A stretch of 64,000 nucleotides of DNA from Cyanidioschyzon merolae (GCA_000091205.1 AP006488.2); one strand, 5' to 3'; numbered from the stretch's first letter, positions 6,611-58,390 are shown. The notes: generated by a model not told the origin, from the sequence alone. Numbers and translations: made by a program.

Positions 6611-7741
6611 AAGACACACCGATCAGAGACCTGAGGCATGCGTTATCTGAGCATGCTATACGGACGGAGCAGAGAAGCGTTGAGTCTCGTTCCAAAAACT
6701 TGGATAATGAAATCAAGTATTTTGCGAATCCTGAGTTCGAGGGCGTTGCGAATCATTCTGATACCGTTGACAAGACGCATTCCAGCGAGCGGCGTCGAAG
6801 GAGCCACTCCGAAACCCCGACCGAGAATACTCAAACTATTTATGCATTCGAAAGCCCGTATGGCTGCACTGCGAAGGCTGCAAGCGTAACTCTAAAAAAG
6901 CGCGAGCGACATATCGGAATGCACGATCAGAAGAACCAGTTTTGTTTTCCACGTTCATCTGATCGCTGTAGCATGGTGCAGACGGGTGCAGGCCTAGCGC
7001 ACCATCGACGGGATATCCTTGACGCTATGCTATGGGTGCCACTCGGGTACAACGCCTACGTTTCAAGCGAATCATTAAGAATCGCTCTTATTGGAAGCGC
7101 GTCCCCCATAAACGCATCGCTCGGCGCTGAATCGCAGATGAGCAGTCTGCGTACTAGCGAACGCAGGCTTTCTCGTGAAACTCATTGGTCAGCACTCACC
7201 TGCGGTTCAAAAAAGAACGGCGCAGCGCCGACACCGCAATCAAGTGCGCTTGACTCGTGCAGGAATAAACCACTTGGACCCTGCTATCGGTTGTATAAAG
7301 CGTGAAAGCTCGTATAGACGTCTTGCTCCCCGGCGTTGTTCAGAACAGCACGCTGCGCTGCTGGGCGCTTCCCTGGAACACGTGTCGACGCAGCCGAGGA
7401 GCGCCATCCTTGCTCTACGAAACATATTGACCAGCAGCGAAAATTGCGTGCCATGGCATACACTTGAAACTGCATTTCGCTCTATCGAAACTGCAGACAA
7501 ACCCTAGATAAGCCCGCTACCTATGCCTCGAGTCCAGCCTCTGAGCCAACGCCAAGGCCAACCACTGGGGTTATCCGTAAAGCGCCGCCCCGCCCCGCGC
7601 TGCACCGCACCCGCTTCAACGTTCGAACGTTCGACTGTTGCCGCTGTAGAGTTGCACTTGTTAGGGACACACTTGAGCACTTGCCTACGGTCGGAACGAA
7701 TTTGCAACGGCTGTCAGAGGCCGACACACGCTGTGAAAGGC

Positions 7742-9943
7742 ATGCCAGGGGCGTCTGGTCCCAAACGGGATGCAGCGGATCGCGTGCAAGACGGCGACTT
7801 TGTTATTCTGCAGTACGGAGAAGGTCGCTATGAGAAACATCGCAAGATCCTGCAAGTTCGGAAGACTACAGCGACTTTGCAAGACGTGCATGACGCTGCA
7901 GGCACTGCTGCTGCTGCGGACACACTGATCAGAGTTGGTACCAGGTACGTGCACCCAAGTGCACTGATCGGCGTTCCGTGGGGCGTGCGTCTCTCTTACC
8001 CGGATCCAGCTGAACAAGCGGTATCGCCTGCACCGCAGGCAACAGACAAACAGATGTTACTCGCTTTGCGAACTGATGCCGATGCCGTTGCAACAGATGG
8101 GCAGGACGTGGACGCGGAGGCACCTGAACAACGAAGCAACCCTAGCGCGACAGCGTGCGCTACGACCGAAAAGCCTCCAACGCTTACCCAGGTCGTTCCT
8201 GGTACCAGTCAGGAAAGTTTCACGTCCCAGTTTCGTGGCACCAATCATCAAACTCGAGCCACAGCGGAAACGGTTTCAGAACGCGTATCCGCTGCACAGT
8301 CCAAACGCTTGGAGCGAAAACATCAGCGGCACGGATTCTCCTTGCGCGTCATCCGTCCTAGTTTATGCACACTTACAGACACCCTTTACCAGAAAATGGA
8401 AGGCAAATCATTGTGGATGCATGCCGAAGCGCTTGGGTTTGTTCTTCTGCAGGCCGGCGTCTGGGCGGGTACCAAACGCGTGTTGATCCTCGAGGAGCTC
8501 GCAGAACGAACAGGTCTTGTAACCGCGGCGTGCACCCAACGGATGCGCTATCCTGGACGAGTTCCAAATCCTGCAGAGGGTATTCTGGTCATCACAGCTG
8601 CAGGAGTTGGCATGAAGACCAGTCATGGTGCTGCACTGCGGATACTTGGCTTACGTCGATCGAAACGAGCTGAGCACAGCGCATCCACTGATCCGTTACG
8701 AGGTGATGCGGAGAACGCATCGAGACAATCGTATTCAAATTCCACTTCAGAAGATCGCCTGGAAGCAGCTGGTCTACCGCTGATTCAGCATCTGCCCTTG
8801 GAATGGTTACAGAAGACGCCAGGGTCATTCGGAGGCCGTCCTCGTGGACATCTCCATGACGCCCGGGCGCCAACCGGGGGCACGGTACCGCCTATGGGTA
8901 CGGACGGTTCGATCGGGGCGGAAAATTCTGGCGATGTGGATGCCCAGCTCCTCGAAGTGAACGATCATCTGCAACATCATGCTGTCAAGAGATCGCCGGA
9001 AGGACCAGAGGAACGCGAGGAGCGTCCCGAATCATCTAAAACGATGGATGTACTGGAATCCTCTGTGCAGAGGTGGCTCGACAATGCCGATCGGGGAAAT
9101 GAGGCAATCATTATTGCCTTCAAAGAGCAGGTCCCTGGTGGAGCAGGCGATCTGGTTCAGCTCATGGCACTGCTTCTTCCATTACTATCGCCTGGTTATC
9201 CCTTTGTCATCTGGAGTCCATGGCTACAGCCTCTGGCGGAACTGCAAGCGTTTATGAGCATTTCAGATGATTCTCGCAGCGAGTCAGCGCCAGTTTCCAT
9301 CGATGCACCTGGGAATCTAGCCAGTTCAGCTCGAAAACTGGATACGAGCACGTGGCAAGGGGTCGGTATCGAAGCGATCGACGATGCGAAACTCGATCAG
9401 TGGAAGCGAAGCAGACGGCAGCCGTTTGTAAACCGACCGGAACGCGAGCGCATGGTGACGACACCGGACAGCATCGCGGTTGCAGAGATACCTCGGAAAC
9501 CTCCAGGGATTCCAGAGGGATCCACTCGCCCCGCACACGCTCCAGACGAATCGTCTGTGAACCGAGCAGTCATGTCAGCGGCAGAGCATCCTGCAGATAC
9601 GGAGTCGCTTATTCCGGCGGCAGAGCGAATAGCGCAGCGTGAATCCCCTTCAACACAGTCTCTATCGATGGACGCTGTGGCAGATTCGCGTCAGGCTCAT
9701 GTCAAGGATCCAAATCCGGTGCCTGTGGGTCACGTTGGGCAGGTTTTCCAAGACGATCACGCGGGTACGACCGATGACGCAACTGGAGACGTGGACCTGC
9801 GTGTGTTACAGCAGGTCGCGCACGTTCGTTTGACGGAAATCACGACGTTTGGGCACCAGTTTGCAGCCGAAAGAACGCACCCCTGGATGTCGCAGACACC
9901 ACCCAGCGGATTCGTGCTGTCCGGGTTCCGAATCCAGCCATGA
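7742..9943 (+). CDS. TRM6/GCD10-like protein (non-catalytic subunit of tRNA m1A58 methyltransferase) with large low-complexity insertions
   Basis: N-terminal block RVQDGDFVILQYGEG...IRVGTRYVHPSALIGVPWGVRLSY resembles the Gcd10/Gcd14 N-terminal barrel. Mid block GTKRVLILEELAERTGLVTAACTQRM and C-terminal block GGAGDLVQLMALLLPLLSPGYPFVIWSPWLQPLAELQAFM resemble TRM6 regions. Start set at the in-frame ATG at 7742 (MPGASG) rather than the ORF-track start 7523. Assignment is tentative. Confidence 0.4.
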   Translation: MPGASGPKRDAADRVQDGDFVILQYGEGRYEKHRKILQVRKTTATLQDVHDAAGTAAAADTLIRVGTRYVHPSALIGVPWGVRLSYPDPAEQAVSPAPQATDKQMLLALRTDADAVATDGQDVDAEAPEQRSNPSATACATTEKPPTLTQVVPGTSQESFTSQFRGTNHQTRATAETVSERVSAAQSKRLERKHQRHGFSLRVIRPSLCTLTDTLYQKMEGKSLWMHAEALGFVLLQAGVWAGTKRVLILEELAERTGLVTAACTQRMRYPGRVPNPAEGILVITAAGVGMKTSHGAALRILGLRRSKRAEHSASTDPLRGDAENASRQSYSNSTSEDRLEAAGLPLIQHLPLEWLQKTPGSFGGRPRGHLHDARAPTGGTVPPMGTDGSIGAENSGDVDAQLLEVNDHLQHHAVKRSPEGPEEREERPESSKTMDVLESSVQRWLDNADRGNEAIIIAFKEQVPGGAGDLVQLMALLLPLLSPGYPFVIWSPWLQPLAELQAFMSISDDSRSESAPVSIDAPGNLASSARKLDTSTWQGVGIEAIDDAKLDQWKRSRRQPFVNRPERERMVTTPDSIAVAEIPRKPPGIPEGSTRPAHAPDESSVNRAVMSAAEHPADTESLIPAAERIAQRESPSTQSLSMDAVADSRQAHVKDPNPVPVGHVGQVFQDDHAGTTDDATGDVDLRVLQQVAHVRLTEITTFGHQFAAERTHPWMSQTPPSGFVLSGFRIQP

Positions 9944-11118: not shown

Positions 11119-12021
11119 CTAGCGCCGGGCAGCCATTTGCATCCGGAACGCAAGCACCTGTTGCCGTTGATCCGGAGGCAGCGCTTGAATCTGCGCTGGG
11201 GTCAGCGACATTAACTGTTGAATCAGAGCCTCTTCAGTCGCAGCGCCTTGACCCGGAACGATGCCTCCAGGCAGCGGTGCAGCAGCGCCGGCTGCAGCAC
11301 CAGACTGCACCCTCTGCATCGCCGCCAGGCTCGCATTCGTAGTCACCGATGCCGTCATACTCTGCAGATATTGCTGTGCCTGTTGAGCGCTGAGCAGGCC
11401 CAGTAAAACCTGGGCTTGGAGAATCGCATGCGCTATCGGTGGATGCGCAGCCAACATCGCGCGTACTTCATTGGGATTCTGCTGGGCGATCGTCTTCAGT
11501 TCAGCGAGCACATCGAAGATCTGCTGGAGACTGAGACCCTGCAGAGATGGCTGTCCGCTTGGGAGCAAAAACGGTTGAACTACCTGTGCAGCCGTCACTG
11601 TCGGTCCAGTCGGCTGTGACGGTGCGGTAGCGTCCGCAAGAGCGTCGTAAGCGCCCCAGGATGCTGCTGAAGCTCCAGGACCCAGCCCAGGGCCCGATCG
11701 TCCGCCCTCGGGCGCTGCTCCTGCCCCCGGTGCAGTGGACCCGCCAGCACTTGCCTGATTCCGAGTCTGCGAACTCGGGGCGATCCGCAGCATTCGTCCT
11801 CCGAACTCTATGCGCTCATTGAGGTTCCGTACAGCACTCTCAGCTGTCTCAGGGTCGCGGTACTCACAGAAACCGTAGCCCTTCGGTTTGCCGGTCTCTT
11901 TGTCGTAAAGGATGCGTAGACTCACCACCGGACCTACTTGCTGCAAGCGTTCTAGCAGCATATCCTCCGTGACTCCATAGGGTATGTTTCCGATAAACAC
12001 AGTGCAGGAACCGCGACTCAT
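11119..12021 (-). CDS. Cleavage stimulation factor 64 kDa subunit (CstF-64/CSTF2-like; Rna15 family)
   Basis: RRM: CTVFIGNIPYGVTEDMLLERLQQVGPVVSLRILYDKETGKPKGYGFCEYRDPETAESAVRNLN. Hinge: PNEVRAMLAAHPPIAHAILQAQVLLGL. C-terminal domain: LTPAQIQALPPDQRQQVLAFRMQ. Start at the MSRGSC ATG (12021); the ORF is open upstream to 12303. Confidence 0.75.
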   Translation of the reverse strand: MSRGSCTVFIGNIPYGVTEDMLLERLQQVGPVVSLRILYDKETGKPKGYGFCEYRDPETAESAVRNLNERIEFGGRMLRIAPSSQTRNQASAGGSTAPGAGAAPEGGRSGPGLGPGASAASWGAYDALADATAPSQPTGPTVTAAQVVQPFLLPSGQPSLQGLSLQQIFDVLAELKTIAQQNPNEVRAMLAAHPPIAHAILQAQVLLGLLSAQQAQQYLQSMTASVTTNASLAAMQRVQSGAAAGAAAPLPGGIVPGQGAATEEALIQQLMSLTPAQIQALPPDQRQQVLAFRMQMAARR

Positions 12022-12262: not shown

Positions 12263-12562
12263 CAGGCAGCAGGATAGGAAAACGTCAGTCGTTTCCGCGA
12301 CAATTGCGAATGCTGTACGAGCCTGCGAGCGCTTCCTGCTTAGCGGTGTCAGCAGGGCGAAGGCCCGTTGACGGAAATTCTTCTCGACTGTTTAGCAGAA
12401 GACCGAGACGCTGGTCTAAAAGCACAGTATGTTTGTGTGCTCCGTTCAAGAAACACGAGGAAGCGGCAGAGAACTTTTCACCAGCTTCGTTGCTGGCGTC
12501 AGTTCCTGTGTGATCAGGAAAACGAACGACGTTTCACGACCACAGTGTAACTGTGTATATGT

Positions 12563-13950
12563 CCAATCACAGACGCCTCCCAGCCTTTTTTGATCGGTTG
12601 CATGCTATCGATTTCTCCTTCTCCTTATACACTTTGACCTTGAGAGGCGGCCCGACGACGTTGGATCGCGTCAGCTCCCCTGGTCTCGTCTTCAGAACTG
12701 CACATCTCCTAATATTGACAGCGGCACTGAAGTCTCCGTTCACGAACTCCATGCGTTAATCGCCGTTGGTGGAACTCGTTTTTTTCGAGCATTCCTGGGA
12801 CTCGTGCCTTCTGACCCATTTCCGGGTCTGTCAGCTCTCCGTGCTTTCGCATCGCCGAGGCGCTCCGCTCCTGTTCCTCCATCTCGATCTTCTAAAGCGT
12901 GCACCGCTGCCCATCTTTTGGACTCTTCATTTCTTCTAATGAACGCACTTGTTCGTATGCTTCGGTGAGGAACTTCCCAGATCGGAAAGGACTTGCACAA
13001 GAACGACGACATGTGCCCCGGTGTCAACGTGTGGTGAGCGCTTCAGCGACTCGCCCAGTGGAGCGAACACTGCGTTTCACGATACAAAACCCTCCCTCGA
13101 TGTGGATCAGCCACGGAGCGTACGCAGGAATCCAGAGCAGCTCTACTCCCAAAAGAAGAATTGGCAAAAGCCCGAACGCAAAGTGAAATGTCTTGAATGA
13201 TTCGACGAAATGGTTGGTGTTGATGGATAAGCCTTCTCTAGGAGCGAAACCGAGGTCGCCAAATGAAGCCACTGCAGCTAGAACAGATGACGATGTCGTC
13301 GTTCTCTTCGAGACTGATCGTCAATGCAACGGGCTCCCTGCTCCGCGAGTACCCATAGACACTCTGGGCGCTTCGTCCGAAGAAAGCCTCATCAACTGAA
13401 AAACAAACCAACCGATATTCCTGTGCTTTACACAGATCGTGACTTTCCAGGAACGCTGCAGTCGTTGGGAGTTCGGCGGAAGATGGCCGAGCGTGAACTA
13501 GGACTTTATTGCGACTGTGTCCCAGTGTTTTCAGGACCGCACGAGCCGGCTGTTGAGAATGAGTGTCGCCCCTGGTGGCTGTTATCATCGCTTCTGCCGT
13601 CCGCAAGTAGATCAAGGGGTCGTTTTCTACCAGTAACCGGCAGCAATTTTTGAGAACGTTGGTTATTTGCATAGAGCGCATATCCTGCTTTTTTCAGTGT
13701 TCCTCAGCCATCTGAGAACTCTGGTACGACTGGCGTTGAGGAGGAATGCAATCTTCCAAGCACGGCTCAGTAAAGAACATATCCTAAAGGAGATTCTTCT
13801 ATGATCTTTATGGTGCGTTGAAACGTGATGCTTATCCCGAGCTCTACACAGCGAAGAAGCATTCCATTCCATGGCTCGGCAGGGGAAACAGAATTGAGTT
13901 GAAAGACTGGAAACAGTACTGGCGCGAAAAAACTGGCCATTTCAATCGAT
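12563..13950 (-). repeat. Copy A of the ~1.4-kb noncoding dispersed repeat family (element reads on minus strand); left arm of inverted repeat
   Basis: About 98-99% identical to copy B over about 1.2 kb with no indels (A position x pairs with B position 31580-x; checked at four ORF pairs). 3' terminus ccaatcacagacgcc is the reverse complement of ...ggcgtctgtgattgg. Inner (5') end diverges from B beyond about 13750, but the shared 5' landmark gtctttcaactcaa is present in reverse complement at about 13891-13907. Confidence 0.85.
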
Positions 13951-14199
13951 GTCCCACGGCGGGCTAGAACTGAGCAAACAAGCTATTATCCTCGTATTCA
14001 AGCCTGGCTTTTACGTGTTGGGTGCCCCGTTATCCGGAGCAAAGTGTTGCGTACTTCTTTAGCTGCGGATAACCGGCGTGCACCAAGGGATCTTCGGTTA
14101 GCTTCAACGAACCCAAACTAGCGAAAAAATCAGCACGAGGTTTGCTCATTGCGTTGCCATTCAACGAAGAGCTGCGCACTTTGATAAAAGCACTGTTAA

Positions 14200-15198
14200 A
14201 TGCTTGATCATCAACCATGGATTGAGAAATACAGACCACGGACGCTCTCTGAAGTCGTCGGCAACCAACCAGTTGTCGAACGACTGCGAGCACTGGCTCT
14301 TAGCGGGAACGTGCCGCACTTGCTGCTCGTTGGTCCACCGGGCGTCGGCAAGACGACCGTAGCGCTTGCTTTGGCGCGGGATACTCTGGGCGATGCGCTC
14401 ATCCAGCAAGCAGTTTTAGAATTGAACGCATCAGATGAACGAGGTATTGACGTGGTGCGAAACAAGATCAAAATGTTTTGCCAACAGCACGTGACCTTGC
14501 CGCCGGGACGACATAAGCTCATCATTCTCGACGAAGCGGACTCGATGACGCCCGCAGCACAGCAAGCTCTACGCCGTATCATGGAACTCTACTCAAGTAC
14601 CACACGATTCGCGCTTGCCGCAAACGTCTCCAGCAAAATCATCGAACCAATACAGAGTCGTTGTGCTGTCATTCGGTTTCGTCGTCTTGGCGATGAAGCG
14701 GTGCGCAGTCGCCTTGTCAGCGTTCTGGAAGAAGAGCACGTTCCGTACGAGCCGGACGGAATCGAGACCATTGTCTTCACGGCCGATGGTGATATGAGGC
14801 AGGCCCTGAACAACGCCCAAGCGACGTGGTTTGGTTTCGGAGTCATTACAACGGAGCATGTGCTGCGTGTATGTGACTCACCGTCGCCAGCACGGCTGCG
14901 TCGATTTCTCGAATTATGTGAGACACAGAAATTTGAGCAAGCAGTTGGCGAGATTGAGGCGATCTGGCGTAGTGGGTACGCAGCGTCGGACCTAGTTGCC
15001 ACGCTGTTTCGGGTGGCTCGAACTCAGGCCATGATCACCGAAGGTGGAGAGCGTGGGCGAGACCTGCGGCTCGAGTTCCTGCGTGAGATCGGTCTAACGC
15101 ATATGCGGATCACGGACGGCTTATCAAGTCTGCTGCAACTCACTGCATTGGCATCGAAGCTGGTCCGTTGTGCTGAACGTATCCACACAGCCCAATAA
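14200..15198 (+). CDS. RFC2: Replication factor C small subunit (human RFC2 / yeast Rfc4-like AAA+ clamp loader subunit)
   Basis: Walker A GPPGVGKTT, DEAD-like ILDEADSMT, SRC motif IIEPIQSRCAVIRF, and C-terminal DGDMRQALNNAQATWFGFG. Full-length 332-aa single ORF. Confidence 0.85.
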   Translation: MLDHQPWIEKYRPRTLSEVVGNQPVVERLRALALSGNVPHLLLVGPPGVGKTTVALALARDTLGDALIQQAVLELNASDERGIDVVRNKIKMFCQQHVTLPPGRHKLIILDEADSMTPAAQQALRRIMELYSSTTRFALAANVSSKIIEPIQSRCAVIRFRRLGDEAVRSRLVSVLEEEHVPYEPDGIETIVFTADGDMRQALNNAQATWFGFGVITTEHVLRVCDSPSPARLRRFLELCETQKFEQAVGEIEAIWRSGYAASDLVATLFRVARTQAMITEGGERGRDLRLEFLREIGLTHMRITDGLSSLLQLTALASKLVRCAERIHTAQ

Positions 15199-16167
15199 GT
15201 TGGAACTGAGCGTGTGCGTTGGTCTCCGAACCAGGGCGAGAACTTGCTTCGGCGGTTGCAACATGCTCTGCGGGACTGGGCTCTAGCGAAACAAGCGGGT
15301 GCGTTCCAGTGGGAAGATGTTATTCAAGCCTGGTCCAGCATGGCTGCCGCACCACAACTAGCAACTTTGTATCTGTTTTGATTTATCCGTGTTCGTGTGT
15401 GGATCGCTCAGTGAAGCAGCATGGGCGTTCTGCCGGCATATCCAGCGTGATGTTGGGGGCGCTGCTATCTTTGGGTGACGATTTCACCATGCGCGTTAGA
15501 ACACGAGCTGGGTATTCGAATGCAGTCTGGTACAGGAGTCGAGCTCGGGCGTATGCATGACCTTCAGTCGACACATGCTTTTGAGCTTTATCGAAGGCAT
15601 GGTTCAGCTGCAAAGGCGACACGGGGCAGAATGTATTTGCGTTCGTGAGGCATACCCACCCGCGGGCTCGATGGCGTCGATGCTCGGGAGAAGCATCCGC
15701 CTCACGTACGTCCCGATTTGGCGCCCTGCAGTCGTCAAGAACTCATGGGTAGCTCGAGTGCCAGGGAGAAGCATCCGCCTTGGGAGGAAACGCTTCGAAG
15801 ACCCTTGAATCGTCAGAAAATGGCTGGTAGCTCGACATAGACAGCGGCTTCTTGCGTACATGGCCTTTCTACATTCGTCGCTGTGCAGAGTATCGGAAGC
15901 TTCAGGCTTCAGCGCGTCACACCATGCGACTAGACGCCGCCTCAACCCAATCATCTAAATACCAGTGCGCTTTGTGGATGCGACAGCGCCAAATAACATA
16001 TCCATACACAACGACTGCGCGCGCTCGCATCAGTGCAGCCTTGCACGGTCAGTGCGAACCTGACGCTGTATGCCCCATTGCCTCTACAGAGGCGCTCATC
16101 GAGGCTCTCTGAGCTCATTCACCAGGATGCACCATCTTTCGGATCATATGCGAAAAATTGAGCCGAA

Positions 16168-16881
16168 TCAGGTAAAACCTGCAGTGGCACCTCGCCCACG
16201 TAGCTTGAAAAACCACAAGAGTACCGCAATGATGACCAAAATCACCATCATAGGCCCGTACTGTCGAATCCGTAGCATCCAACGAGCATGTTTCGCTCGA
16301 CGGAGGTACTTGCGCGACTCTGCTGATAGCATGGCGCTGGTATTCTGCAGTGATTCGAGACGTTCGCCCCGTCCAAGCACTTCCTGAATACTCCTCGTCA
16401 TGATGTCGCGCACATCCAAAAGCTCTGAGTTGAGGCGTTCCAGGTTTCGGACAGCACTGGCGTCCAAGTACACTTTCTTCGTCTTTTGGATGAAGCTGTC
16501 GAAGCGAATCATCTCATAGGGTCGGTTCGCCAGTGCCACCTGGGCTCCATAAACTGCTTCAAACTCCCGTCGAAGTTCGTCGAGAAACGCGAACGCCAAC
16601 TTTCGCGGATAAGCTTTTTCGCTCAGCGTCAAGAAAGCCACCTGGTCACCAAGCAAATAGTGAAACGTGAAGGCGCCCGATTCGATGCTGGCGGCTTTCC
16701 GAGAAGCCGGAACGCTGCCGCGTCCGCCAGCCAAGTACTCGGCAGTGAGACCCTTGAGGATCCGTTTCGCCTGTCGCTCGTACTCTTGAAGCTCTAGCGC
16801 GAACGCGTCCTTTTCGTCGGCCAGGGAAGCTGCGAGCGGCAGTCCATCCGTCAATCGCGAGATGAACGTTATCTTTGGCAT
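16168..16881 (-). CDS. SEC22: SEC22-type R-SNARE (longin domain, SNARE motif, C-terminal TM)
   Basis: [20 protein letters not shown] (longin N-terminus as in Sec22b [20 protein letters not shown]), FTFHYLL...[33 protein letters not shown], SNARE heptads, then hydrophobic tail [15 protein letters not shown]. Start moved to the internal ATG at 16881. Confidence 0.75.
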   Translation of the reverse strand: [237 protein letters not shown]

Positions 16882-17649
16882 CAAAACCTGTTGCGAAGCG
16901 TCACTAGATGTGGTTGTTCGGAGAGCGGGCCACAGCGATGCCAACGATACATCGGAAAGTGCTGGATTGCCCAGCGGACCCTAGTGCGATGCCTAGCGCT
17001 GCGGCTGACTCTGAACCGAGTACCGTTCGCGAATGGAAGCGATGAGCCTAAGTCTTCGGTCGCTACGGAACGAGTTCTGGAATCTTACACAGTTCTCGCA
17101 AGATTTCGTGTCACAGGATGGAATACAGAGCGGAAGCACACATGGAACGCGCTCTCAGGGACTGGGGCGTAGTGTCTGCGTCACCAGCCTCGATTCTCGA
17201 ACACTACATCGGTAACGTCTCTAGTCTCAATAAAGAGGATCGTCCGGTACAGGCTGCGCTTTATTACGGTCTTTGTGCCTCGTTCGCATGCATATTCGGG
17301 GACAATACGGAGGCTGAGTAGAAGACATGCCTGTTTCGATCGAAGGGAGATCGCGACGTAGGTATTCTCGCGATGGTGACAAGCATCCCTGGCCAGCTTT
17401 TACCTGTGTCATGGTGAAAATCGAGGCAAGCAAACGATTCGCAACGAGTACGCAATATGCAAGTGTAGCAACGCTGCATAGAACAGGGCATGCAAAGAGG
17501 TTGCATCTCATGGCGAGAAGCTTGGCGGTGAAGCGCGCATTCCAATGCACTCGAGAAGCGAGTTTTCCCAGTACACGTATTTCAAGATCATAGCGTTACG
17601 GTCTTTTGAGTTTCAAAGCTTTGAATATGGTTGGGAAGCAGACCTGAGG

Positions 17650-19017
17650 ATGAGTAGCGCTGCAGAGGTAACGCGATACCGGCCTTTGTTAACGTCTTTC
17701 AACTCAAATTTTGTTCGGCCCCGGTTTGGTGAATAGCAGGAGATCGAAATGACCAAGCAATGTACCCTATAGATCGAGGACGAATTGCCCGTACGGTATA
17801 CAATCTTTACTGAACAGTGCATGGAAGATTGCATTCCTCCTCAACGCCAGTCGTACCAGAGCTCTCAGATGGCTGAGGAACACTGAAAAAAGCAGGATAT
17901 GCGCTCTATGCAAATAACCAACGTTCTCAAAAATTGCTTCCGGTTACTGGTAGAAAACGACCCCTTGATCTACTTGCGGGCGGCAGAAGCGATGATAACA
18001 GCCACCAGGGGCGACACTCATTCTCAACAGCCGGCTCGTGCGGTCCTGTAAACACTGGGACACAGTCGCAATAAAGTCCTAGTTCACGCTCGGCCATCTT
18101 CCGCCGAACTCCCAACGACTGCAGCGTTCCTGGAGAGTCACGATCTGTGTAAAGCACAGGAATATCGGTTGGTTTGTTTTTCAGTTGATGAGGCTTTCTT
18201 CGGACGAAGCGCTCAGAGTGTCTATGGGTACTTGCGGAGCAGGGAGCCCGTTGCATTGACGATCAGTCTCGAAGAGAACGACGACATCGTCATCTGTTCT
18301 AGCTGCAGTGGATTCACTTGGCGACCTCGGTTTCGCTCCTAGAGAAGGCTTATCCATCAACACCAACCATTTCGTCGAATCATTCAAGACATTTCACTTT
18401 GCGTTCGGGCTTTTGCCTATTCTTTTTTTGGGAGTAGAGCTGCTCTTGATTCCTGCGTACGCTCCGTGGCTGATCCACATCGAGGGAGGGTTTTGTATCG
18501 TGAAACGCAGTGTTCGCTCCACTGGGCGAGTCGCTGAAGCGCTCACCACACGTTGACACCGGGGCACATGTCGTCGTTCTTGTGCAAGTCCTTTCCGATC
18601 TGGGAAGTTCCTCACCGAAGCATACGAACAAGTGCGTTCATTAGAAGAAATGAAGAGTCCAAAAGATGGGCAGCGGTGCACACTTTAGAAGATCGAGATG
18701 GAGGAACAGGAGCGGAGCGCCTCGGCGATGCGAAAGCACGGAGAGCTGACAGACCCGGAAATGGGTCAGAATGCACGAGTCCCAGGAATGCTCGAAAAAA
18801 ACGAGTTCCACCAACGGCGATTAACGCATGGAGATCGTGAGCGGAGACTTCAGTGCCGCTATCAATATCAGGAGATGTGCAGTTCTGAAGACGAGACCAG
18901 AGGAGCTGACGCGATCCAACGTCGTCGGGCCGCCTCTCAAGGTCAAAGTGTATAAGGAGAAGGAGAAATCGATAGCATGCAACCGATCAAAAAAGGCTGG
19001 GAGGCGTCTGTGATTGG
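17650..19017 (+). repeat. Copy B of the ~1.4-kb repeat family (plus orientation); right arm of inverted repeat
   Basis: See copy A. 5' landmark gtctttcaactcaa at 17694. 3' terminus ...aaaaaaggctgggaggcgtctgtgattgg at 19017. Small ORFs inside mirror those in A on the opposite strand. Confidence 0.85.
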
Positions 19018-21765
19018 GTATATAGACTCTCTATGGTCATGAATCGTTTAACTAATCAATGATCGAATATCACGAATGCTTTTGTGTAGTCTATGCTAGT
19101 TTCAGATTATACTGGAACACTGAATCACGCACTCTGTTCCTGCCTTGCGAATGTTTGAGAGCATATTTAAAGATAAAGCCTCGAGATTCGAAGTTGAACA
19201 GAAAGGCTTCGCGGATGCATGCGTGGTAGTAGAATTCCCGGGCGTCTTCTCGGAAAGGCAACTGTCAACTTCTGCCTCTGGAATCCGTTACAGTACCATA
19301 ATCAGGATATTTCGAGGCATTCTCGAACAAGAGTTCTTCAAGTATGCCATGTCATTATCCAGCCCATTCATGCAAGCCCCCAGGCGGCTCCTTTCCTGAC
19401 ATGTTGCATCGCTCAAATGAAGCAGTCTTCAATGTTTCGCTCTTTCTGCTTCAAGGCAGCTCGTGTCCGCAGTGATTCGCATCTCTGGACGGTTACGGAA
19501 AAATCTTGAATTGGTCCCTTGATAACTTATCCGCAAGCTCATGCCAAATATTCTCTGAGCTTCTAACTTCAAAAAACGAATTCCATTCCAAAGATAGTTC
19601 CTGATCTTCTTGTGCGCATCAACGATACAGCGTCGGACTGCACCGAGATCCATTCTCAGGATATACTCTCAAAGCCTCCTGTCTCTTCTGTATGCGTGGA
19701 ATTGGGTCTTGCGCTTGGGCTTTAGTCATCGCAGCGATCATGTGTAGTGGAAATAGCGTCACCGCAGTGAATGCAGGAGGCGCAGAAGTATCAAAAGGTG
19801 CTGGCATTTTCTGCGCCATGGCAGTTTCCGTCCGATACTTGTTCCATCGTGGACAACATCGTTTGCCAAGAATCCTATATACAAATCGGAATACCGTGCC
19901 CACGCATGTGCAGCGGACAGAGAACGTACCAATGGGATCGTCCGATGAATCCTGTGATCTTAGGGTACAGCACGGATTACGGAAACTGAGAAGAGCATGC
20001 GGGAGTGCTTTCCCCATCCGTCATGGATACGTACCTAGCGATGTAACAAGCTTTTGCGCGCGACAAGGCACCTCTCGGAGAACAAGGTAAGGTGGATGTA
20101 TGCTAATAACTCAGTACAATCAAGTGCCACCGGTGCGTAGAACGCACCAAGGATGTATACTAGGACGGGAATCGGCAAGCGGACCTTAGAACGCAACTTG
20201 TTCGAGAGCATGGAACTCGTCGACGAGTGCTGGAAGCTACAAAATGGGGACTCGGACGCTTTTAGCAACATACTTCGACTGCCGAATATGGAGCCGGAGG
20301 AAAATGAGAGACTCGAGCTTTTAACGCCAGAAATAAACGAGCAAACTTGAGATCAATCGCAGAAAACGCACGTAAGGTCCAGTTTTGATGAAAATAGGAA
20401 GAGTCCAAAACTTTAGAGTGCACGCCCGGGTCACTGAACCCGTTCATCTTTCATCCACCCTGGTTGTAGGAATGATTTTATGAACCAGGAGTCCCACAAG
20501 GGTGCTCCTAATCGATACTCAGAGAAGTGCCCTCTACACTGCTCTGCTCCGACGCCCCGGCGCTCCATTTGCCACAGACCGGACTTGTCTTTGGGGCAGG
20601 GGCATGAAAAACCAAGGAGCACCTCGTATGAAGCATTGATCCTCTGGCAGCGACACAGTGAACGATGCAGTCTGCGAGTCGACGTCCGCAGAATTATGCA
20701 TGAAGATGTAGCCGTCTCTAAGTGCGCCCCATCAGAGCCTTGAAGTCTTAAGTCCGTGAGTAAGCGTCCGCAAGGATGTGTCCTAAGTTACTGTGAAATT
20801 TCCGTATAATAGAGCTGTTGTTTTCGGCACTCCAAGAGTCAGGAAATCGATCAGAGCTCTTTTCCTGAGGAGAATGCTGCCGAGCTGGAGCTACTGGGAT
20901 ATAAAGGCGTTTCCGGAGGAGCCAGTACCTCTTGTTCTAATAAACGGCAGCAGTTGCATATCCTGCAGGTTCTCGTTAGATACACCGATGGTGCCTCAAT
21001 TTAAATAGGAATCTGCACCTGCACGCGAAACGCTGTGTTGTCCAGTAGCTCGGCTGCAGCGAGCTTCCTGGGGCGGCACAGGGCAGCTTGTAGACGAGTT
21101 TACACAAATTGCGATGCCGTAGACGCTCGCCTCGTTCGACTCCAGTCCTGACTGCAGGCAGTAACGAGCGCTTGCATCGGTGCCGATAAGAAGCACAGAC
21201 CTTTACGTTTCGACCGCTGATGCATTGTGGATTCGACTCGAGCCAACGACCAACTGAGCAGGCGACGTCTTGAGAAACAAGCAAACGGCACACTGGTCAT
21301 GTAATGAAAAGCAAGTTGCGAGCATTTCTCGTCGGGCTCCGGACGTGGCGAGAGCAGGTCTCAACGCGAAAGCCAACGTCCAAGTGGCGCAGCCGAAGCT
21401 TGGTATTCGACTCTGCTTCATCGAACCAAACTGAGGTATATACTTTTAAAAAAAAAGTAATGTGACTGTCATTGCAACAAACAGTCCCTTTAAGGATCAA
21501 TACAGGTAGCAAAGCCGTAAGGTCAGGCTCCTGCCATCGAATGCCCACCAGAACGATTGTATCGCAAGGTCATCCTTCGCTGCAAAAGGTACAGTGCGCA
21601 GTAGTGGTGCCGCTCTCCTCGTATGCATTTTACCAATAGATTCGTCAGACGCTTATTTCCTGATGTGAACGGCAGGCACGACAACCGCTTAACGGACCTT
21701 GGACGCCGACAGGCACAAAACCTGTTCTCGTAGAGCTCCAAATCTACACAAACATACAAAAGCAT

Positions 21766-22398
21766 TCACACTAGCGCCGGACTTTTCGCTCCGCTTTCGT
21801 TTGTTTTGTTGAGCGTCCCTTGCTTTGTATCGACTAGCTCGATGGTTTCGCGCTCGGTGCCATCGCCATCGTTGCTGATCGAGTGGCTTCGTGAACTCGA
21901 CTGCCGTGTTGCGGCTGCTTTCGCTTCAGCGGTGTACGCCCGTCGCCTCTGGAGTTTGTCCCAGCCAAGCCTTACGCAGTTCACCGCAGAGAAGAAGCAC
22001 CAGATTCCCTCGTAGACAACAAAAGGCCAATAGAAAATCATAGCTGCTGCAGCTGTCGCTAACGCTCCGCCCAGAAAGTTCGCAAATGAATAAAGAATCG
22101 AATCCGGCCAGCGCTCCAGTCGCCATACTCGAAACAGGTTCAACAAGAATGCTAGTAGCATCAGTGCGACGCCTACTGCGCCTATCGCCGTGGAAGCGGG
22201 ACTCTCCGTACTGAACATTTCACTGAAAAGCGAAACATAAAACCTTGAATAGATTCTGAACGCAAACAGAACCAACCCCAAGACTCTTTGCGTTGCAAGG
22301 CGACTTGGAAATCTAGTTTGTATCAAGAAATGAGTCCCAAGGCCAAAGCTTGTAAAGCACGCGGGCAGTGTTCCGCGTTCACGACTCCAAATTTGCAC
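21766..22398 (-). CDS. Hypothetical small membrane protein (several predicted TM helices)
   Basis: ORF with hydrophobic segments LGLVLFAFRIYSRFYVSLF, AIGAVGVALMLLAFLLNLF and FANFLGGALATAAAAMIFYWPFVVY plus a hydrophilic C-terminus. No recognisable family; may be non-coding. Confidence 0.25.
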   Translation of the reverse strand: MQIWSRERGTLPACFTSFGLGTHFLIQTRFPSRLATQRVLGLVLFAFRIYSRFYVSLFSEMFSTESPASTAIGAVGVALMLLAFLLNLFRVWRLERWPDSILYSFANFLGGALATAAAAMIFYWPFVVYEGIWCFFSAVNCVRLGWDKLQRRRAYTAEAKAAATRQSSSRSHSISNDGDGTERETIELVDTKQGTLNKTNESGAKSPALV

Positions 22399-23689: not shown

Positions 23690-24035
23690 AACGAAGAAGA
23701 GCAAGTGGCGAAGAAAAGGAATGAGCAGATAGACCAGAAAAAGTGTTTGCCCGACGGGCTGATGACTGTACTCTAGTGGCACAGAGGGCATGAGTTCTAG
23801 TAATTCGTACCAATGTGCTTTCAGCCAGTGTCAAGAAACGCAAGGTGTTGGTGAAGTGAAACCTCAGCGCCGCCATCAATATCAGAAAATGTGTGGTGCT
23901 GAAGACGAGACACGAAGAGCTGACGCGATCCAACTTCACGGAGCAGCCTCTAATACTCGAAATATACACGGAAAAGCTGAGGCCTATTGCGGGGAGGCGG
24001 TCAACATAAGGCTGCGAAGTGTCTGTGAGTTGGCG
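23690..24035 (+). repeat. Copy C: 3'-terminal fragment (about 350 bp) of the repeat family
   Basis: Shares the conserved block ccgccatcaatatcag...tgaagacgagac...gagctgacgcgatccaac and the terminus gtgtctgtgagttgg, then tatac. Ends about 495 bp upstream of the co-oriented kinase start. Confidence 0.7.
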
Positions 24036-33059: not shown

Positions 33060-34455
33060 ACCTACAGGTTCCTATACTCTTTCAACTCAAGTACGTATCA
33101 TCCTTGAAGTGTCGTATACCACGAGATCAAAATCTCAACGCAATATACCGCACAGATCCAGGACGCATTGCCTCTAGTATATGTTCTTTACTGAACGGTG
33201 CAACGAGGACTGCACTTCTCTTTCTGGTCAGTCGTACCGCAGTACTCAGACCGTGGAAGAACGCTGGAAGAAAGAAGTATATGCGCTCCCCGCAAAAAAA
33301 CTGTCATTGTCAAAGCGTGAACGCGGCCAATTGTGGAAAACAACCTGTTGATTACATTACGGAAAGCAAAAGCGACGATGGTAGCCACCACGGAGTCCCT
33401 GTTTCTCAAGAGCTTGTTCCCGTGATCCTAAAAAAACTGGGGTGCAGTCGCCTAGAAGAGCCCTCATTCATGCACGGCTACATTGCATCGAAATCGCAAC
33501 GACAGCGTTCCTCGAACGCCGCGAACGGTATGAAGAACAGGTACGTTGGTTGGTTTTTTCAGTTGATGGGACTTTCTTCGGATGAAACGGCAAGAGCATA
33601 TGCGGGTATGCGCGGAGCAGGGAGCTCGTTATATTTACGATCAATCTCGAAGAGAGCGACGACGACGTCGACATCTGCTCTAGCTGCACTGAATTCATTT
33701 GGCGACCTCAGTTTCGCTCCTAGAGAAAGCTCATACAACAGCACCAATCACTTTGTCGAATCATTGAAGACTTTTCCTTCGCGTCTGGCCACGGCCTTCT
33801 CTTCAACAACGTGGTATTCAACCATTCTTCTTGCGTACAACCGTTTGATGAAGCTATCGGAGAAGAATTGAATTTCGTTCATCTGTGCTCTCCGTGGTTC
33901 GACAGTTTCTTAGGAGTGTTTTCTATCGTGGAAGGTAATGCTCTTCCACTGGAAGAATCGCAGAAGCGTTCAGCTCACAGTGACACACCCGGGCACATTT
34001 CGTCTTTCGGCCGCAAGTCCTTCTTCTTCAGGGAAGCTCCGCAACTAAAGACACCAATAGGTGCGTTCATTTGAAGAAATAAAAAGTCCAAGGGATGAGC
34101 TTGCGAGGGAGGGGGGCGGGAACACACCAGAAGGTCGAGAAGGAGAAAAGACAGCCGAGCGCCTCTGCGATAGAAAAGCATGGACTGCTGGCAGAGCCGC
34201 AAATGGGACGGATGGCACGAGTTCGAGGACTATTTGCATTGATGAACTCAGCTAGCGGCAAGAAATGCATGGAGTTTCTGAACCGAGTCTTCAGCGCCGC
34301 CATCATGATCAGGAGATGTGCGTTGCTGGAGATGATACGCGCAGCTGACGCGAAGCAACTCTATCGGGCAATGTCCCAGGTTCGAGGTACGCTGGAATAG
34401 ACTGAAACCGCTAGCAGGGGCTGGCAATTTTTACTGGAAAGCGTCTGTGAGCAGA
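33060..34455 (+). repeat. Copy D of the ~1.4-kb repeat family (diverged, roughly 75-80% to B)
   Basis: 5' landmark tactctttcaactcaag at about 33066. Internal blocks ctttactgaacggtgca, gatggtagccaccacgg, tctagctgcactgaattcatttggcgacctcagtttcgctcctagagaaagctcatacaacagcaccaatcactttgtcgaatcattgaagac. 3' terminus gcgtctgtgagcag at 34441-34454, about 80 bp upstream of the MOSC ATG. ORF 33104..33871 lies entirely inside it. Confidence 0.8.
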
Positions 34456-50629: not shown

Positions 50630-52086
50630 GAATATTATGGTCCTCAAATCAATCCTGTCCCACCCTGGCAGCGCTCTATAGCCTGAGATCTGAATCACTA
50701 TGCAATGCACCGTACATATGAATGGCGTATTGCTACTAGGATATCTATTCGTTCCTGAACAGTTCAAAGAGGACCGCATTCCTCCTTTAGGCTAGGTATA
50801 TCACAGTACTCAGATAGCCGACGAAGACGTAAGGGAGGAAGTAAACGCGCCCTGCGAAAAAAGCCGATACTCCCAAACACTCCTTGCCCGTTCATTGCAG
50901 AGAACGACCCGTTGATTAGTTTAAGGAAAGCAAAAGCCACAATAGTAGTCATCGCGGGTGTCTCTGTTCATCACCAGCTTGTTCGTATGGTCCTGGAAAG
51001 ACTTGGATACAGTCGCAAAAAAAAGAGTTCTAATTCGCCCAGGGGCATCTTTCAGGGAAATCGCAACCAAAGCGTAGCTAGGGAGTCACGATCCGCATGA
51101 AGACCAGGTACGTCGGATTTTTTCAGTCGATGAGACTTGCTTTTGATGAAACGGTCGGAAAGTATATGGGTATTCGTGGAGCGGGGAGCCCGTTGTACGT
51201 AAGGTTGAGCTGGTAGAGAACGACGACATTATCACCTGTTCTAGCTGCACTGTATTCATTCGGTCGCCTCAGTTTCAAACATAATTGAGGCTCAAACAAT
51301 AGCAACAACAGATTCGTCGAGTCACTAAACACTTTTCCCTAACGTCTGGCGACATCGCTCTATGGAACGGAGTTGTGTTGCATCGTTCCCCTTGTGTTTG
51401 AGCTTTTTGCCGAATCTATTGGGGTGGAGCTGATTGTCATTCCTCCTTTCTCATCGTAGCTCTACCCGATCGAACGAGTGTTTTAAGCCGCGAGACGTAA
51501 TGATCGCTCTACAGGGTGAATCGCTGAAGCTTTCAGCACGGTGACGAGTCGGGTCACTTGTCAACTTTCTTCCGCAAGTCCCTCTCCTTCCGGGCAGGTC
51601 CTCTTCGAAGGTCATAGAGAAAAGCGTTCACTTGAAGAAACATAAAATTCAAGGTAAAGTTTTTGACTTGAAAGTCGAGGTTCCTGGAGGCGCGTTTTCG
51701 CTGGTTTCGACACAAAACGGAACAAATCCTCTTCTCCCCGACCACCACGCAAAGAAGATCAAGTGAAGAAGAGGAAGAATGGAGGAGATGGGCGGAAAAA
51801 GATGTTTGCCCTTCAGAGCAATGAGGAGACGAGTGATACAGAGGTCATGATTTTTAGCAACTTTGTATTGATGAGTTCACCCAGCGGCTCTGCACGCATG
51901 AGGTTCGTGAATCGAGACTTCAATGCCTCCAGGCAATATCGGACGCCTTGTGGAGCTGAAGACGAGACCCCCAGAGCTGACGTGAGCGAACGTTGTGGCG
52001 ATCTCTGGTGCTCGAAGCGTAGAAGGTGAAGCTGAAGCCGATACCAACTGGCCGATCGAAAAAGTCTAAGAGGCGTCTGCGAGTGG
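50630..52086 (+). repeat. Copy E of the ~1.4-kb repeat family
   Basis: 5' tatagcctgagatctgaatcactatgcaat... . Internal blocks ggaaagcaaaagccacaatagtagtc, tctagctgcactgtattcattcggtcgcctcag, tgaagacgagacccccagagctgacg. 3' terminus ggcgtctgcgagtgg at 52072-52086, then atatgc. Abuts the 3' end of the GH31 gene (convergent). Confidence 0.8.
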
Positions 52087-52363
52087 ATATGCATTTACCC
52101 TGCACGGCCGTAAGGCATTATTTGTTTCAATAACATTTGTATCACGACCAAGGTAACAGAACTTTCGCTCAGTACCGACGAAAATCGATCCTCAAAACGC
52201 AGCCCAAACAACACACCCCTGGTCAAGCTCAAAATCTTGCGGACTGTGGCACAGTCGCCTTTAATCCTGAAAGTTCTTTGGTACCGCGGCGGCAGATGCA
52301 GGGTCGGCAACATCCGTTGCACACGAAGGTGTTGCTCATTCACGAAAAGGTCTTGCATTGCTT

Positions 52364-56824: not shown

Positions 56825-57602
56825 CGTGTTTCAGGAAAATATCGTTCGAAACAATCGAGTCGCTGAACTTCCATGCGACGTGGCATGAGCCGTCTTCATA
56901 GTCGCTGTACGTATCCCGCGTGTCGGCTATTGAAGTCTTCAGCTCTACATGGATGTTGCGACGCAGCTGCTTTGGCTTATGGCAATGGGGTCCCTTCAAT
57001 CGTCGAAGTTGTCGTCAACCAAATCGCTCTGACCCACAACCAGCTTCTTTCCGATTGCAAATTATGCGCTGAGACAGCATAGAGTCTTAGAAGAACTCTT
57101 GATAAGCATATTCAATTTCGACGAAAGGGCTGAGCGCCTGCGTTGGCCATCAAGCGCTGAGGTCAACAAGGCTGGGTACCATTGAGGCACCTGACAGATT
57201 CACTCGCACGGGCTTTTTGCTATCCTTGCTTTCAAAAGGAAGACTTTTAGAAGGGTCCACACGTTGATCCAGTAGAACTAGGACTCGCATTCGTCTGTTG
57301 GAGGAGAACACCTACAAGCAAGGAAAGCCCTCCAGTCTGCGTAGTTCCCTGTTCTGCTTTGCAGGCCCATTTTGTATGCTGTTGTAAATTTGTCCATAAT
57401 ACCATGGAACCATGCTTGCGCATATACAGAAAGCTAATGAAGCTGGCGCATAGCACCTTTGCTCCACATTAGTACTGTTCAGGGGTCGCAGCATTTGCTA
57501 TGACGTAGCGGCGTCGCTCAAGCGCGTTCGCCTGCAATCGGAGCCACTGCAACGCTGCAGACATCGCTGCAACATGGATAAGGGCGCTCGGCGAAGCTCA
57601 TA

Positions 57603-58390
57603 GCGTCTTTCAACTCAATCCGGTAACACCCGGCAGCGGTTTATAGCAAGAGATCTAAATGTCTGTGAAGTGTACCGTACAGATCACAAACGATTTGCCT
57701 GTGAGACATATTCTTCCGGAAAAGTGCATGGAGGACTGCATTGCTCGTTCAGGTCCGTCATACCAGAGTACTCAGATGGTAGAGGAACACTGAAAGAAAC
57801 AAAGATATACATGCTGTGCCAAAAACCGATGTCCTCAAAGACTGCTTGCGGTCCATGGTAGAAAGCGACCGGTCGATCAACTTACGGTTAGCAGCTGCCA
57901 CGATGGTAGCCACCACGGGAGTCGATGCTTCTCACCAGCTTGTTCGTGTGGTCCTGAAAACACTGGGGTGCAGTCGCCGAAAAGAGTCCTAATTCACGCA
58001 CGACTATCTTCGATTGAAAACGCAACGACACCGTTCTGAAAACTTAGCGATCAGCACGAAGCACATGGACGTCGATTTGTTCTTTCAGTTAATGAGAATT
58101 GCTTCCGACGAGACTGTCGCTGCCTATGTGAGTTTTCGCGGAGAGTGAGCCCATTGCATGTACGATCGAGCTCGTGGAGAACGACGACATGTTCATCTTT
58201 TCTAGCTGCAGTATATTCATTTTGCGGCCTCGGTTTCGCTCACAGAGGAGGCTCATACAACAGCACCAACCAGTTCGTCAAATCGTTGGAGAAAGTTCTC
58301 TAACGTCTCGCGACGACCCTCCACCGGAAATTGTGATGTCTCAGCATCCTTCCTGCATTCGAGCCTTTGCCGATGCTATCGGGTAGAGCT
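57603..58390 (+). repeat. Copy F1: 5' portion (about 790 bp) of the repeat family, truncated where it meets F2
   Basis: 5' landmark gcgtctttcaactcaatcc at 57603, tatagcaagagatctaaatg, gtgcatggaggactgcattgctcg, gatggtagccaccacggg, tctagctgcagtatattcattttgcggcctcggtttcgctc. Ends near gagcctttgccgatgctatcggg. Confidence 0.75.

Follow-up and report, generated by a model that had tools for sequence, protein, structure and literature searches.

How did two nearly identical inverted sequences come to flank a pair of essential genes in a compact algal genome, and has the block between them been turned around? The red alga Cyanidioschyzon merolae serves as the 'simplest' photosynthetic eukaryote and has been described as having a structurally very plain genome. 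The locus considered here lies on chromosome 6 of C. merolae 10D, within a stretch of 64,000 nucleotides that was analysed as a whole and is referred to below as the window. A preliminary description of the window had placed a near-perfect inverted repeat around two genes, called as an RFC small subunit and SEC22, and had proposed that this geometry is a substrate for inversion. Both gene calls were confirmed by protein identity and domain content. The genes needed to follow the argument are these:

7523..9943, + strand: Gcd10-like gene, synteny anchor on flank A (an ORF, with Gcd10p calls on syntenic contigs)
11119..12021, - strand: CstF-64-like gene, the flank-A neighbour (RRM_1, CSTF2_hinge and CSTF_C domains); adjoins SEC22 in the outgroups and RFC2 in 10D
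14200..15198, + strand: RFC2, gene for a replication factor C small subunit, part of the inverted block (its protein matches subunit 2 of C. merolae 10D replication factor C at 100% identity; domains Rep_fac_C and AAA)
16168..16881, - strand: SEC22-like longin SNARE, inside the inverted block (Longin and Synaptobrevin domains; BAM79483.1 / XP_005535769.1)
21766..22218, - strand: gene next to the cassette on flank B, for a small membrane protein like CBU_0592 (an identical protein is on record, PF26604; matches the outgroup loci); adjoins RFC2 in the outgroups

Structure of the inverted arms

A repeat search of the 10-22 kb region reported a single inverted pair, 12553-13776 and 17804-19027, with arms of 1224 nt that are 98% complementary and 4027 nt apart. 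A base-by-base recount found 25 mismatches over the 1224 ungapped positions (97.96% identity), so the near-perfect repeat is real. When the core shared by the arms is counted from 12563, 22 of 1214 positions are mismatched (98.19% identity) with no indels, the longest perfect run is 234 bp, and paired coordinates sum to 31580 throughout, as the preliminary description had deduced. Its arm limits of 13950 and 17650 have to be drawn in, since high identity stops at 13776 and 17804 and the two copies are ~59% identical beyond. Self-blast and family alignment nevertheless trace each arm past these limits as a complete repeat element:

12530..13908, - strand: arm A, a full-length copy of a dispersed repeat of ~1.36 kb, with its outer end at 12530 and its inner end at 13908 (family alignment with copies B to E, self-blast)
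12563..13776, - strand: arm A core, homogenised and matching that of arm B at 98.2% identity
13777..13908, - strand: inner terminal segment of arm A, family sequence that is not homogenised and is RFC2-linked in every contig
17692..19045, + strand: arm B, a full-length copy of the same repeat of ~1.36 kb, with its inner end at 17692 and its outer end at 19045 (self-blast, family alignment)
17692..17803, + strand: inner terminal segment of arm B, not homogenised and SEC22-linked in every contig
17804..19017, + strand: homogenised core of arm B (repeat search and recount)

The edge of the core is sharp. Just beyond 13776 the ungapped identity of the two arms is ~30%, the random level, and when aligned their inner terminal segments are 59% identical over ~110-112 bp, compared with 57-66% for any pair of family members; the outer 28 bp are ~71% identical. 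The difference between the core (98.2%) and the inner terminus (59%) is highly significant (Fisher p = 1e-36). Both arms stay colinear with the family through these diverged ends and retain its inner and outer termini, and the identity therefore breaks off within homologous sequence, as at the boundary of a conversion tract. The preliminary description had overlooked this confinement of the 98% identity to the element interior.

The repeat family

The arms belong to a family of non-coding dispersed repeats of ~1.36 kb, of which the window holds about six copies or fragments. The family alignment shows a conserved inner terminus, TCTTTCAACTCAA, and a conserved outer terminus, GGCGTCTGTGA...GGTCRTGAA. 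Three further copies were placed:

33078..34360, + strand: copy C, 71% identical to the A/B core; family reference
50644..52090, + strand: copy D, 65% identical to the A/B core
57601..58391, + strand: copy E (partial), 67-73% identical to the A/B core

The similarity of arms A and B is thus as unusual as had been claimed, with other copies in the window measured at 65-75% identity to them, a range slightly lower than the 70-80% first given.

Mirrored pairs of ORFs in the arms had been offered as evidence of the mirror-image arrangement, but these ORFs proved spurious as genes. Mismatches are spread evenly over codon positions (125/117/110, 143/137/139 and 82/76/85), all six frames are similarly conserved without codon periodicity, the ORFs are not annotated in 10D, and they have no Pfam matches. 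They also have no homologues outside their own locus cluster, so the ORF search detected no other near-identical copies. Rfam and tRNA searches returned no matches in the window. The arm family does not qualify as an autonomous transposable element: Pfam found no transposase, reverse transcriptase or recombinase domain in it, and neither terminal inverted repeats nor target-site duplications were seen in the family alignment. It may still be a non-autonomous element. The family resembles the '253-copy novel interspersed repetitive element' of Nozaki et al. 2007 (PMC1955436) in being abundant, dispersed in C. merolae and devoid of an intact gene. As compared by description only, the two differ in that the published element averages 3.2 kb and includes a truncated ORF weakly similar to WSSV WSV486, whereas the arms measure ~1.36 kb and have no coding signal.

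Homogenisation of the arm cores

The restriction of high identity to the element interior argues for gene conversion between two old copies and against a recent duplication. Variation among relatives points the same way. Environmental contigs, which are short-read metagenome assemblies from JGI samples with 98-99% identity to 10D, carry three outer-arm haplotypes that differ at 11 sites and one indel in ~205 bp, and each haplotype occurs on both flanks within a strain or sample. In these environmental strains the outer-arm type is common to both arms of a strain and different between strains, which is the pattern of concerted evolution. In one contig (L025) the flank-B arm matches flank-A arms at all but 3-4 of 1045 sites. 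Alleles at 18781-19019 that might be taken as flank-specific are strain-specific and present on both flanks. The inner 400 bp of the arms hold too few discriminating sites to phase the arms by overlap. From these patterns in the sequence, gene conversion would be the homogenising process. Strong suppression of homologous recombination is expected, however, where copies share only ~60-70% identity, which counts against the conversion model and against its first conversion in particular.

If the arms were instead recent insertions of an active element, or a recent inverted segmental duplication, their identity would simply reflect youth. The absence of indels over 1.2 kb at 98% identity fits such an origin, as does the abundance of repeats in C. 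merolae, where they make up 12.7% of the genome compared with 0.59% in the sister genus (PMC9812998). A young copy, however, should keep its ~98% identity as far as the ends of the element or beyond, whereas here identity drops within the element, to ~71% over the outermost 28 bp and 59% on the inner side, with both arms still colinear with the family. Arm types differ between strains and yet match within a strain, and the ORF search described above yielded no further near-identical copies. We consider a recent origin of the arms quite improbable.

Gene order in related algae

Loci of three related algae, in which RFC2 is 85%, 82% and 69% identical, served as outgroups. All three share the gene order CBU_0592(+)-RFC2(+)-SEC22(-)-CstF64(+)-Gcd10(-). 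Relative to this order exactly the RFC2-SEC22 block is flipped in 10D, which is otherwise colinear with the outgroups over up to ~30 kb. In one outgroup locus (L014) the spacers are merely 326-446 bp, and no family copies were detected in any of the three loci (word size 7, E below 0.01). Comparison of orthologous loci, which the preliminary description had proposed, thus gave the opposite cassette orientation without detected arms in three outgroups. The idea that the arms are a substrate for inversion is borne out by a block that is flipped in 10D relative to these loci and to many contigs of environmental strains.

The 10D breakpoints fall inside the repeat cores. No gene is interrupted, so the inversion is probably neutral. 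Two features expected of non-allelic homologous recombination (NAHR) are present, namely highly similar inverted sequences at both breakpoints (1224 nt, 97.96%) and a block found in both orientations among related genomes with colinear flanks, the within-species part being provisional because it comes from short-read assemblies.

The bracketing of a cassette by inverted repeats could also suggest a switch inverted by site-specific recombination, or a transposon of the composite or foldback type that carries RFC2 and SEC22; the preliminary description had noted a resemblance to a foldback or composite structure. Beyond this geometry the locus does not behave in that way. The arms are 1.36 kb non-coding repeats, the ORFs at 11-22 kb show only RFC, SNARE and CstF Pfam domains and none of a recombinase or transposase, and the family alignment gives no sign of a target-site duplication at the outer ends. 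The cassette genes occupy the same ancestral locus, with the same neighbours, in the three outgroups without detected arms. The foldback or composite reading fails on these grounds, and a switch or transposon of either kind is so improbable as to be negligible.

Orientation in environmental contigs

'10D-like' Cyanidioschyzon is dominant in the Yellowstone Lemonade Creek metagenomes. Among contigs 98-99% identical to 10D, 18 carry the ancestral junction and three the 10D-type junction. The 10D orientation itself is based on the published reference assembly and two metagenome contigs, of which L015 is colinear with it for 13.7 kb across arm A and L039 for 4.8 kb across arm B. Searches for the RFC2-arm-flank B junction that were anchored on CstF64 gave nothing by exact look-up and one relevant contig, again L015, by metagenome scan. 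The short-read evidence is inconclusive and suggests that both orientations may exist in wild populations; strains 98-99% identical to 10D probably differ, judging from these assemblies, in the orientation of a block with two essential genes.

The arms at ancestral junctions join a B-type inner terminus to an A-type outer terminus and flank A, the re-association that NAHR within the arms would leave. RFC2-side pieces in all contigs have A-type alleles at the inner terminal segment. One contig with the ancestral junction (L003), colinear with the window across the Gcd10-like region, has an arm on the SEC22 side and a further arm piece 94% identical to it, which would place the repeat before the inversion. 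None of the contigs extends across both arms. The other junction expected of the ancestral order, RFC2-arm-flank B, did not turn up; ten of ten CBU_0592-anchored contigs end within the arm. Individual contigs that cross an arm could be mis-joined, because the arms are ~99.7% identical over more than 1 kb in one lineage.

Since inverted duplicated sequence sits exactly at both breakpoints, the inversion might itself have made the repeat, as happened with many inversions in Drosophila, by way of staggered breaks or repair that depends on replication. Both arms are, however, complete family elements with their own diverged termini. Contigs in ancestral orientation also bear the SEC22-side arm together with a similar RFC2-side arm piece, and flank-B contigs from the same sample series bear an arm. 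An inverted repeat created by the inversion is therefore very improbable.

A more dynamic possibility is that the cassette toggles, with mitotic or meiotic crossovers between the arms repeatedly switching its orientation within C. merolae lineages and populations and keeping the arms alike. Both junction classes do occur in one sample series (18 ancestral contigs versus L006), and arm SNPs are shuffled among contigs. L004 and L005, with the ancestral junction, share a cassette haplotype with L006, which has the 10D junction; only 3 sites differ in the 3.8 kb cassette between L004 and L006. A link between orientation and cassette haplotype is accordingly not supported. Outer-arm haplotype and orientation, on the other hand, are correlated, the ancestral junction occurring with type 1 and 10D junctions with types 2 and 3, so that one lineage-sorted inversion suffices and fits at least as well as toggling. 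The discordant contigs moreover change haplotype at ~18,780, where the strains share sequence, as chimeras of a strain mixture would, and the discordance of L004, L005 and L006 is probably due to such chimeras. Recurrent flipping of the block seems unlikely to us.

Proposed history and significance

We favour with good confidence a history in which old inverted repeat copies had their interiors homogenised by recombination, and an NAHR inversion of the RFC2-SEC22 block followed in the 10D lineage. Two old and independently diverged copies of ~1.36 kb would have lain in inverted orientation in the spacers on each side of the gene pair. Recombination between them, in the form of gene conversion and possibly repeated, would have homogenised the 1.2 kb interiors, and at least one crossover within the homogenised cores (NAHR) would then have turned the two genes round, as a block of 3.8 kb, on the branch that led to 10D. 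The order of events, repeat first and inversion later, is the one we infer. C. merolae is highly proficient in homologous recombination, and gene targeting has reportedly been achieved in it. A literature search for nuclear inversions or inverted repeats of C. merolae found nothing specific.

The locus shows structural consequences of the repeat expansion in Cyanidioschyzon, in which dispersed repeats undergo concerted evolution and mediate micro-inversions. Such events are too small for gene-block synteny methods that require at least 5 genes, as do the synteny blocks of Cho et al. 2023. A difference in orientation between strains, if true, bears on reference-based mapping, on the design of gene targeting near the locus and on strain typing, and the locus offers a simple PCR-testable marker for ectopic recombination. 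A sexual cycle of C. merolae has recently been described. Should the cassette toggle after all, it would report, from within the genome, on ectopic homologous recombination and possibly on that cycle, and two essential genes might find their chromatin or transcriptional surroundings changed with it.

Comparison with known systems

The mechanism is NAHR between inverted repeats, a fresh instance of a known process and not a new one. As in other inversions at segmental duplications or dispersed repeats, such as human inversion polymorphisms and those mediated by yeast Ty/delta elements and bacterial IS/rrn sequences, highly similar inverted repeats lie at both breakpoints, the breakpoints fall within repeats, termini and flanks are re-associated, genes stay intact and both arrangements occur among relatives. 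Unlike known inversions of this kind, the event is on a very small scale, with arms of 1.2 kb around two genes in a block of 3.8 kb; its arms are homogenised old copies, about 60-70% diverged, and not young duplicates, and the host genome is unusually compact and highly recombination-proficient. The staggered-break inversions of Drosophila likewise have inverted duplicated sequence exactly at both breakpoints, but here the repeats were probably present before the inversion, in the ancestral orientation, and each arm is a full element of a dispersed family. Human Y-chromosome palindromes and plastid inverted repeats also show concerted evolution of inverted arms, with arms closer within a genome than between strains, and arm-to-arm conversion in palindromes leaves a similarly sharp tract boundary. 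Plastid inverted repeats show an equilibrium of isomers, of which no sign was obtained here. Y palindromes have arm identities above 99.9%, in contrast to 98.2% in 10D, and the arms here are without genes.

The inverted repeat and the genes it brackets

The sole long inverted repeat at 10-22 kb of the window pairs 12553-13776 with 17804-19027 (1224 nt, 98% complementary, 4027 nt between). An ungapped recount found 25 mismatches in 1224 positions, or 22 in 1214 (98.19%) when counted from position 12563, with a longest perfect run of 234 bp; just beyond 13776 ungapped identity drops to ~30%. The near-perfect repeat of the preliminary description and its coordinate sum of 31580 were both confirmed. 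No Rfam families or tRNAs were found in the window.

Features of the locus
7523-9943, plus: Gcd10
11119-12021, minus: CstF64
12530-13908: arm A, full length by five-copy alignment
14200-15198, plus: RFC2, between the arms
16168-16881, minus: SEC22-type longin SNARE, between the arms
17692-19045: arm B, full length by five-copy alignment
21766-22218, minus: CBU_0592

RFC2 is 100% identical to C. merolae 10D replication factor C subunit 2. In three environmental contigs (L003, L007 and L041), a 1-bp insertion at 16886, shortly before the annotated start of SEC22, makes the called ORF 261 aa long instead of 237, and the real start codon may differ from the annotated one.

The arms belong to a dispersed non-coding family

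Self-comparison of the window placed both arms in a dispersed family with further copies at 33078-34360, 50644-52090, 57601-59511 (rearranged) and 23599-24070, which are 65-75% identical. Alignment of five copies defined a repeat unit of ~1.36 kb whose termini, TCTTTCAACTCAA (inner) and GGCGTCTGTGA...GGTCRTGAA (outer), are both conserved. Mismatches among copies show no bias towards any codon position, and tblastn matches are weak and of similar strength in all six frames. The arm ORFs contain no Pfam domains and are absent from the 10D annotation, and the longest (147 aa), searched against 5.8 billion protein clusters, matched only the cluster of its own locus. We therefore rejected them as genes; the mirrored ORF pairs originally read as such are mirrored non-coding sequence. 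A 1-bp indel at 18794 (L003:5033-5479) presents the outer arm either as a single 148-aa ORF, in type 1 environmental arms (see below), or as ORFs of 95 and 61 aa, in 10D. Metagenome gene callers label these outer-arm ORFs hypothetical proteins, though the sequence evolves as non-coding DNA.

The family forms a second inverted pair, 57601-58391 (+) and 59511-58583 (-), tail to tail with a near-zero spacer; in contrast to arms A and B it is only ~69% identical and not homogenised. Two other dispersed pairs, 19273-19738/27083-27549 and 5616-5822/47003-47208, are 66-68% identical and unrelated to the arm family. The 19273-19738 copy sits in the gene-poor, unusually long (2.7 kb) spacer between arm B and CBU_0592, and the 27083-27549 copy carries an indel polymorphism, with ~41 bp of 10D (27388-27428) missing from the environmental contigs L023 and L024. 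A short tandem duplication lies at 42805-42947 (76-bp units, 67 bp offset, 93% identical).

Probable homogenisation of the arm cores

In global alignment the ~98% identity is confined to 12563-13776 of arm A and falls abruptly on either side, although both arms continue past these limits as family sequence.

Identity by segment in the family alignment (copy C, 33078-34360; D, 50644-52090; E, 57601-58391)
Core, 1214 bp: A-B 98.2%; A or B against C, D and E 65-71%
Inner terminal segment, 112 bp: A-B 59.1%; all family pairs 57-66%
Outer 28 bp: A-B 71%; against D 43-46%; segment uncovered by C and E

Core and inner terminus differ strongly in identity (Fisher p = 1e-36). Were the arms recent insertions or a duplication, they would stay ~98% identical to or past their ends; the discontinuity inside the elements contradicts such an origin. 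As judged from the alignment, the high identity instead fits a conversion tract rather than youth, with two old copies that would have overwritten each other's interiors.

Orientation of the cassette in related algae

Orthologous loci were obtained from three related algae: L013 (Logan SRR7903764; RFC2 85% identical), L001/L002 (JGI; 82%) and L014 (ENA ERZ1300892; 69%). All three have the order CBU_0592(+)-RFC2(+)-SEC22(-)-CstF64(+)-Gcd10(-), whereas the window reads Gcd10(+), CstF64(-), arm A, RFC2(+), SEC22(-), arm B, CBU_0592(-). DNA matches make these loci colinear with the window for up to ~30 kb, the sole exception being the RFC2-SEC22 block, which is in the opposite orientation. Because the outgroups all share that orientation, the 10D arrangement is derived, with breakpoints that coincide with the two repeat copies. 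The suggestion that the repeat geometry is a substrate for inversion of the cassette is thus supported by comparative data.

No copies of the arm family were detectable in the outgroup loci, where spacers are short (326-446 bp in L014, ~770 bp in L013). A published repeat expansion in Cyanidioschyzon fits this pattern, with repeats making up 12.7% of the genome compared with 0.59% in Cyanidiococcus; mean intergenic sizes in that study are 1890, 930 and 320 bp (PMC9812998). Its synteny blocks required at least five genes, so a two-gene inversion would have escaped it.

Junctions in environmental strains

Environmental contigs retrieved via RFC2, CBU_0592 and the arm ORFs are 98-99.6% identical to the window. 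Only contigs crossing a whole arm were counted; flank A is the CstF64/Gcd10 side and flank B the CBU_0592 side.

Junctions crossed by environmental contigs
J1, 10D, SEC22-arm-flank B: L006, L039
J2, 10D, RFC2-arm-flank A: L015, 13.7 kb colinear with window 17885-4123
J3, ancestral, SEC22-arm-flank A: 18 contigs from 18 samples (L003, L004, L005, L007, L029-L035, L042-L046, L049, L050)
J4, ancestral, RFC2-arm-flank B: no crossing contig among those retrieved

L015 and L039, from one JGI sample series, jointly reproduce the whole 10D arrangement, and the 12-kb L003 carries J3 and extends to Gcd10. J3 arms combine a B-type inner terminus with an A-type outer terminus and flank, which places the exchange point inside the homogenised core, as non-allelic homologous recombination (NAHR) predicts. 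In L003 a partial second arm, 94% identical to its SEC22-side arm, adjoins RFC2, and flank-B contigs of the J3 sample series stop within an arm. A highly similar inverted repeat is thus probably present in the ancestral orientation as well, which argues against the inversion having created the repeat. An origin of the repeat through staggered breaks is contradicted by these arms, unless all their contigs are mis-assembled, and by the structure of arms A and B as complete elements with independent termini.

The RFC2-side piece of L003 (L003:1-285, equivalent to 13403-13820) lacks 130 bp (13567-13695), is ~6% diverged from each 10D arm and shows 10 private differences over 164 bp. Either a deletion specific to that strain or a mis-join could account for it. 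In the JGI 33000503xx series (L003-L012, L019-L028), no contig crosses the RFC2-side arm (12530-13908), nor do flank-B contigs extend through theirs, against 18 across the SEC22-side arm.

The crossing contigs are short-read assemblies from mixed populations: L015 has Ns at polymorphic sites, and cassette haplotypes are mosaic. Between the L025 arm anchored in flank B and the J3 arms, only 3-4 of 1045 sites differ, so the arms of that lineage are ~99.7% identical and hard to phase, with few discriminating sites in the inner 400 bp of overlap. One cassette haplotype is common to L004/L005 (J3) and L006 (J1), which part only outward of ~18,780, as would be expected of a chimera between co-occurring strains. 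Random mis-joining is nevertheless disfavoured by the 18:1 ratio of J3 to J1 in that sample series (J3 in 11 of the first 12 crossing contigs, binomial p = 0.006) and by the independence of the samples, and the ancestral arrangement is what the outgroups lead one to expect. Natural C. merolae-like strains probably include both orientations.

Concerted evolution of the arms

Three arm types are distinguished by 11 sites and one indel at 18781-18986.

Arm types
Type 1, AACCACGCTCG, +1 bp: flank A, 24 contigs; flank B, L025 and L019
Type 2, CTG[T/C][G/A]GAGAGA: both 10D arms; L006 (flank B)
Type 3, AACC[G/A]GAGAGG: flank A, L015; flank B, L039 and L040

Several type-defining sites lie within ~100 bp of flank-specific sequence and hence are linked to it by single reads; since types occur on both flanks, the two arms of one strain have the same type. 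Types are 5-6% apart across this stretch, compared with ~1% for unique DNA of the same strains, a classical signature of gene conversion. We infer that the two paralogous copies already differed in the ancestor and that strains have since fixed these differences in opposing directions. At the 22 core differences in 10D, every environmental arm has the A allele at 7 and the B allele at 6, implying ~0.5% private changes per 10D arm since the last homogenisation. The conversion boundary is not fixed: on the RFC2 side, L010 and L041 have B-type alleles at 17814-17821.

Arm type tracks orientation, J3 contigs having type 1 and the contigs with J1 or J2 having type 2 or 3. A single lineage-sorted inversion suffices for this correlation; recurrent flip-flop of the cassette is possible and not required.

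Mechanism and comparison with known systems

We consider it highly probable that two old inverted non-coding copies underwent ectopic gene conversion and that a later crossover inverted the block in the 10D lineage. Copies only ~60-70% identical would first have been homogenised, and exchange inside their cores would then have flipped 3.8 kb (13909-17691). RFC2 (~290 bp) and SEC22 (~750-810 bp) both retain their own upstream regions, so the inversion was likely neutral in outcome. A recombinase switch or composite transposon, akin to the foldback or composite structure proposed earlier, is contradicted by the absence of recombinase and transposase domains from ORFs between 11 and 22 kb and by the ancestral, conserved location of the cassette.

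Nozaki et al. 2007 (PMC1955436) described a 253-copy interspersed element of C. merolae, on average 3.2 kb, with a truncated WSV486-like ORF. It is a candidate identity for the arm family, whose copies here measure ~1.36 kb and show no coding signal. In a genome famed for being simple, the locus adds a new, well-documented case of a known type of event: inversion by NAHR in which the flanking repeats evolve in concert.
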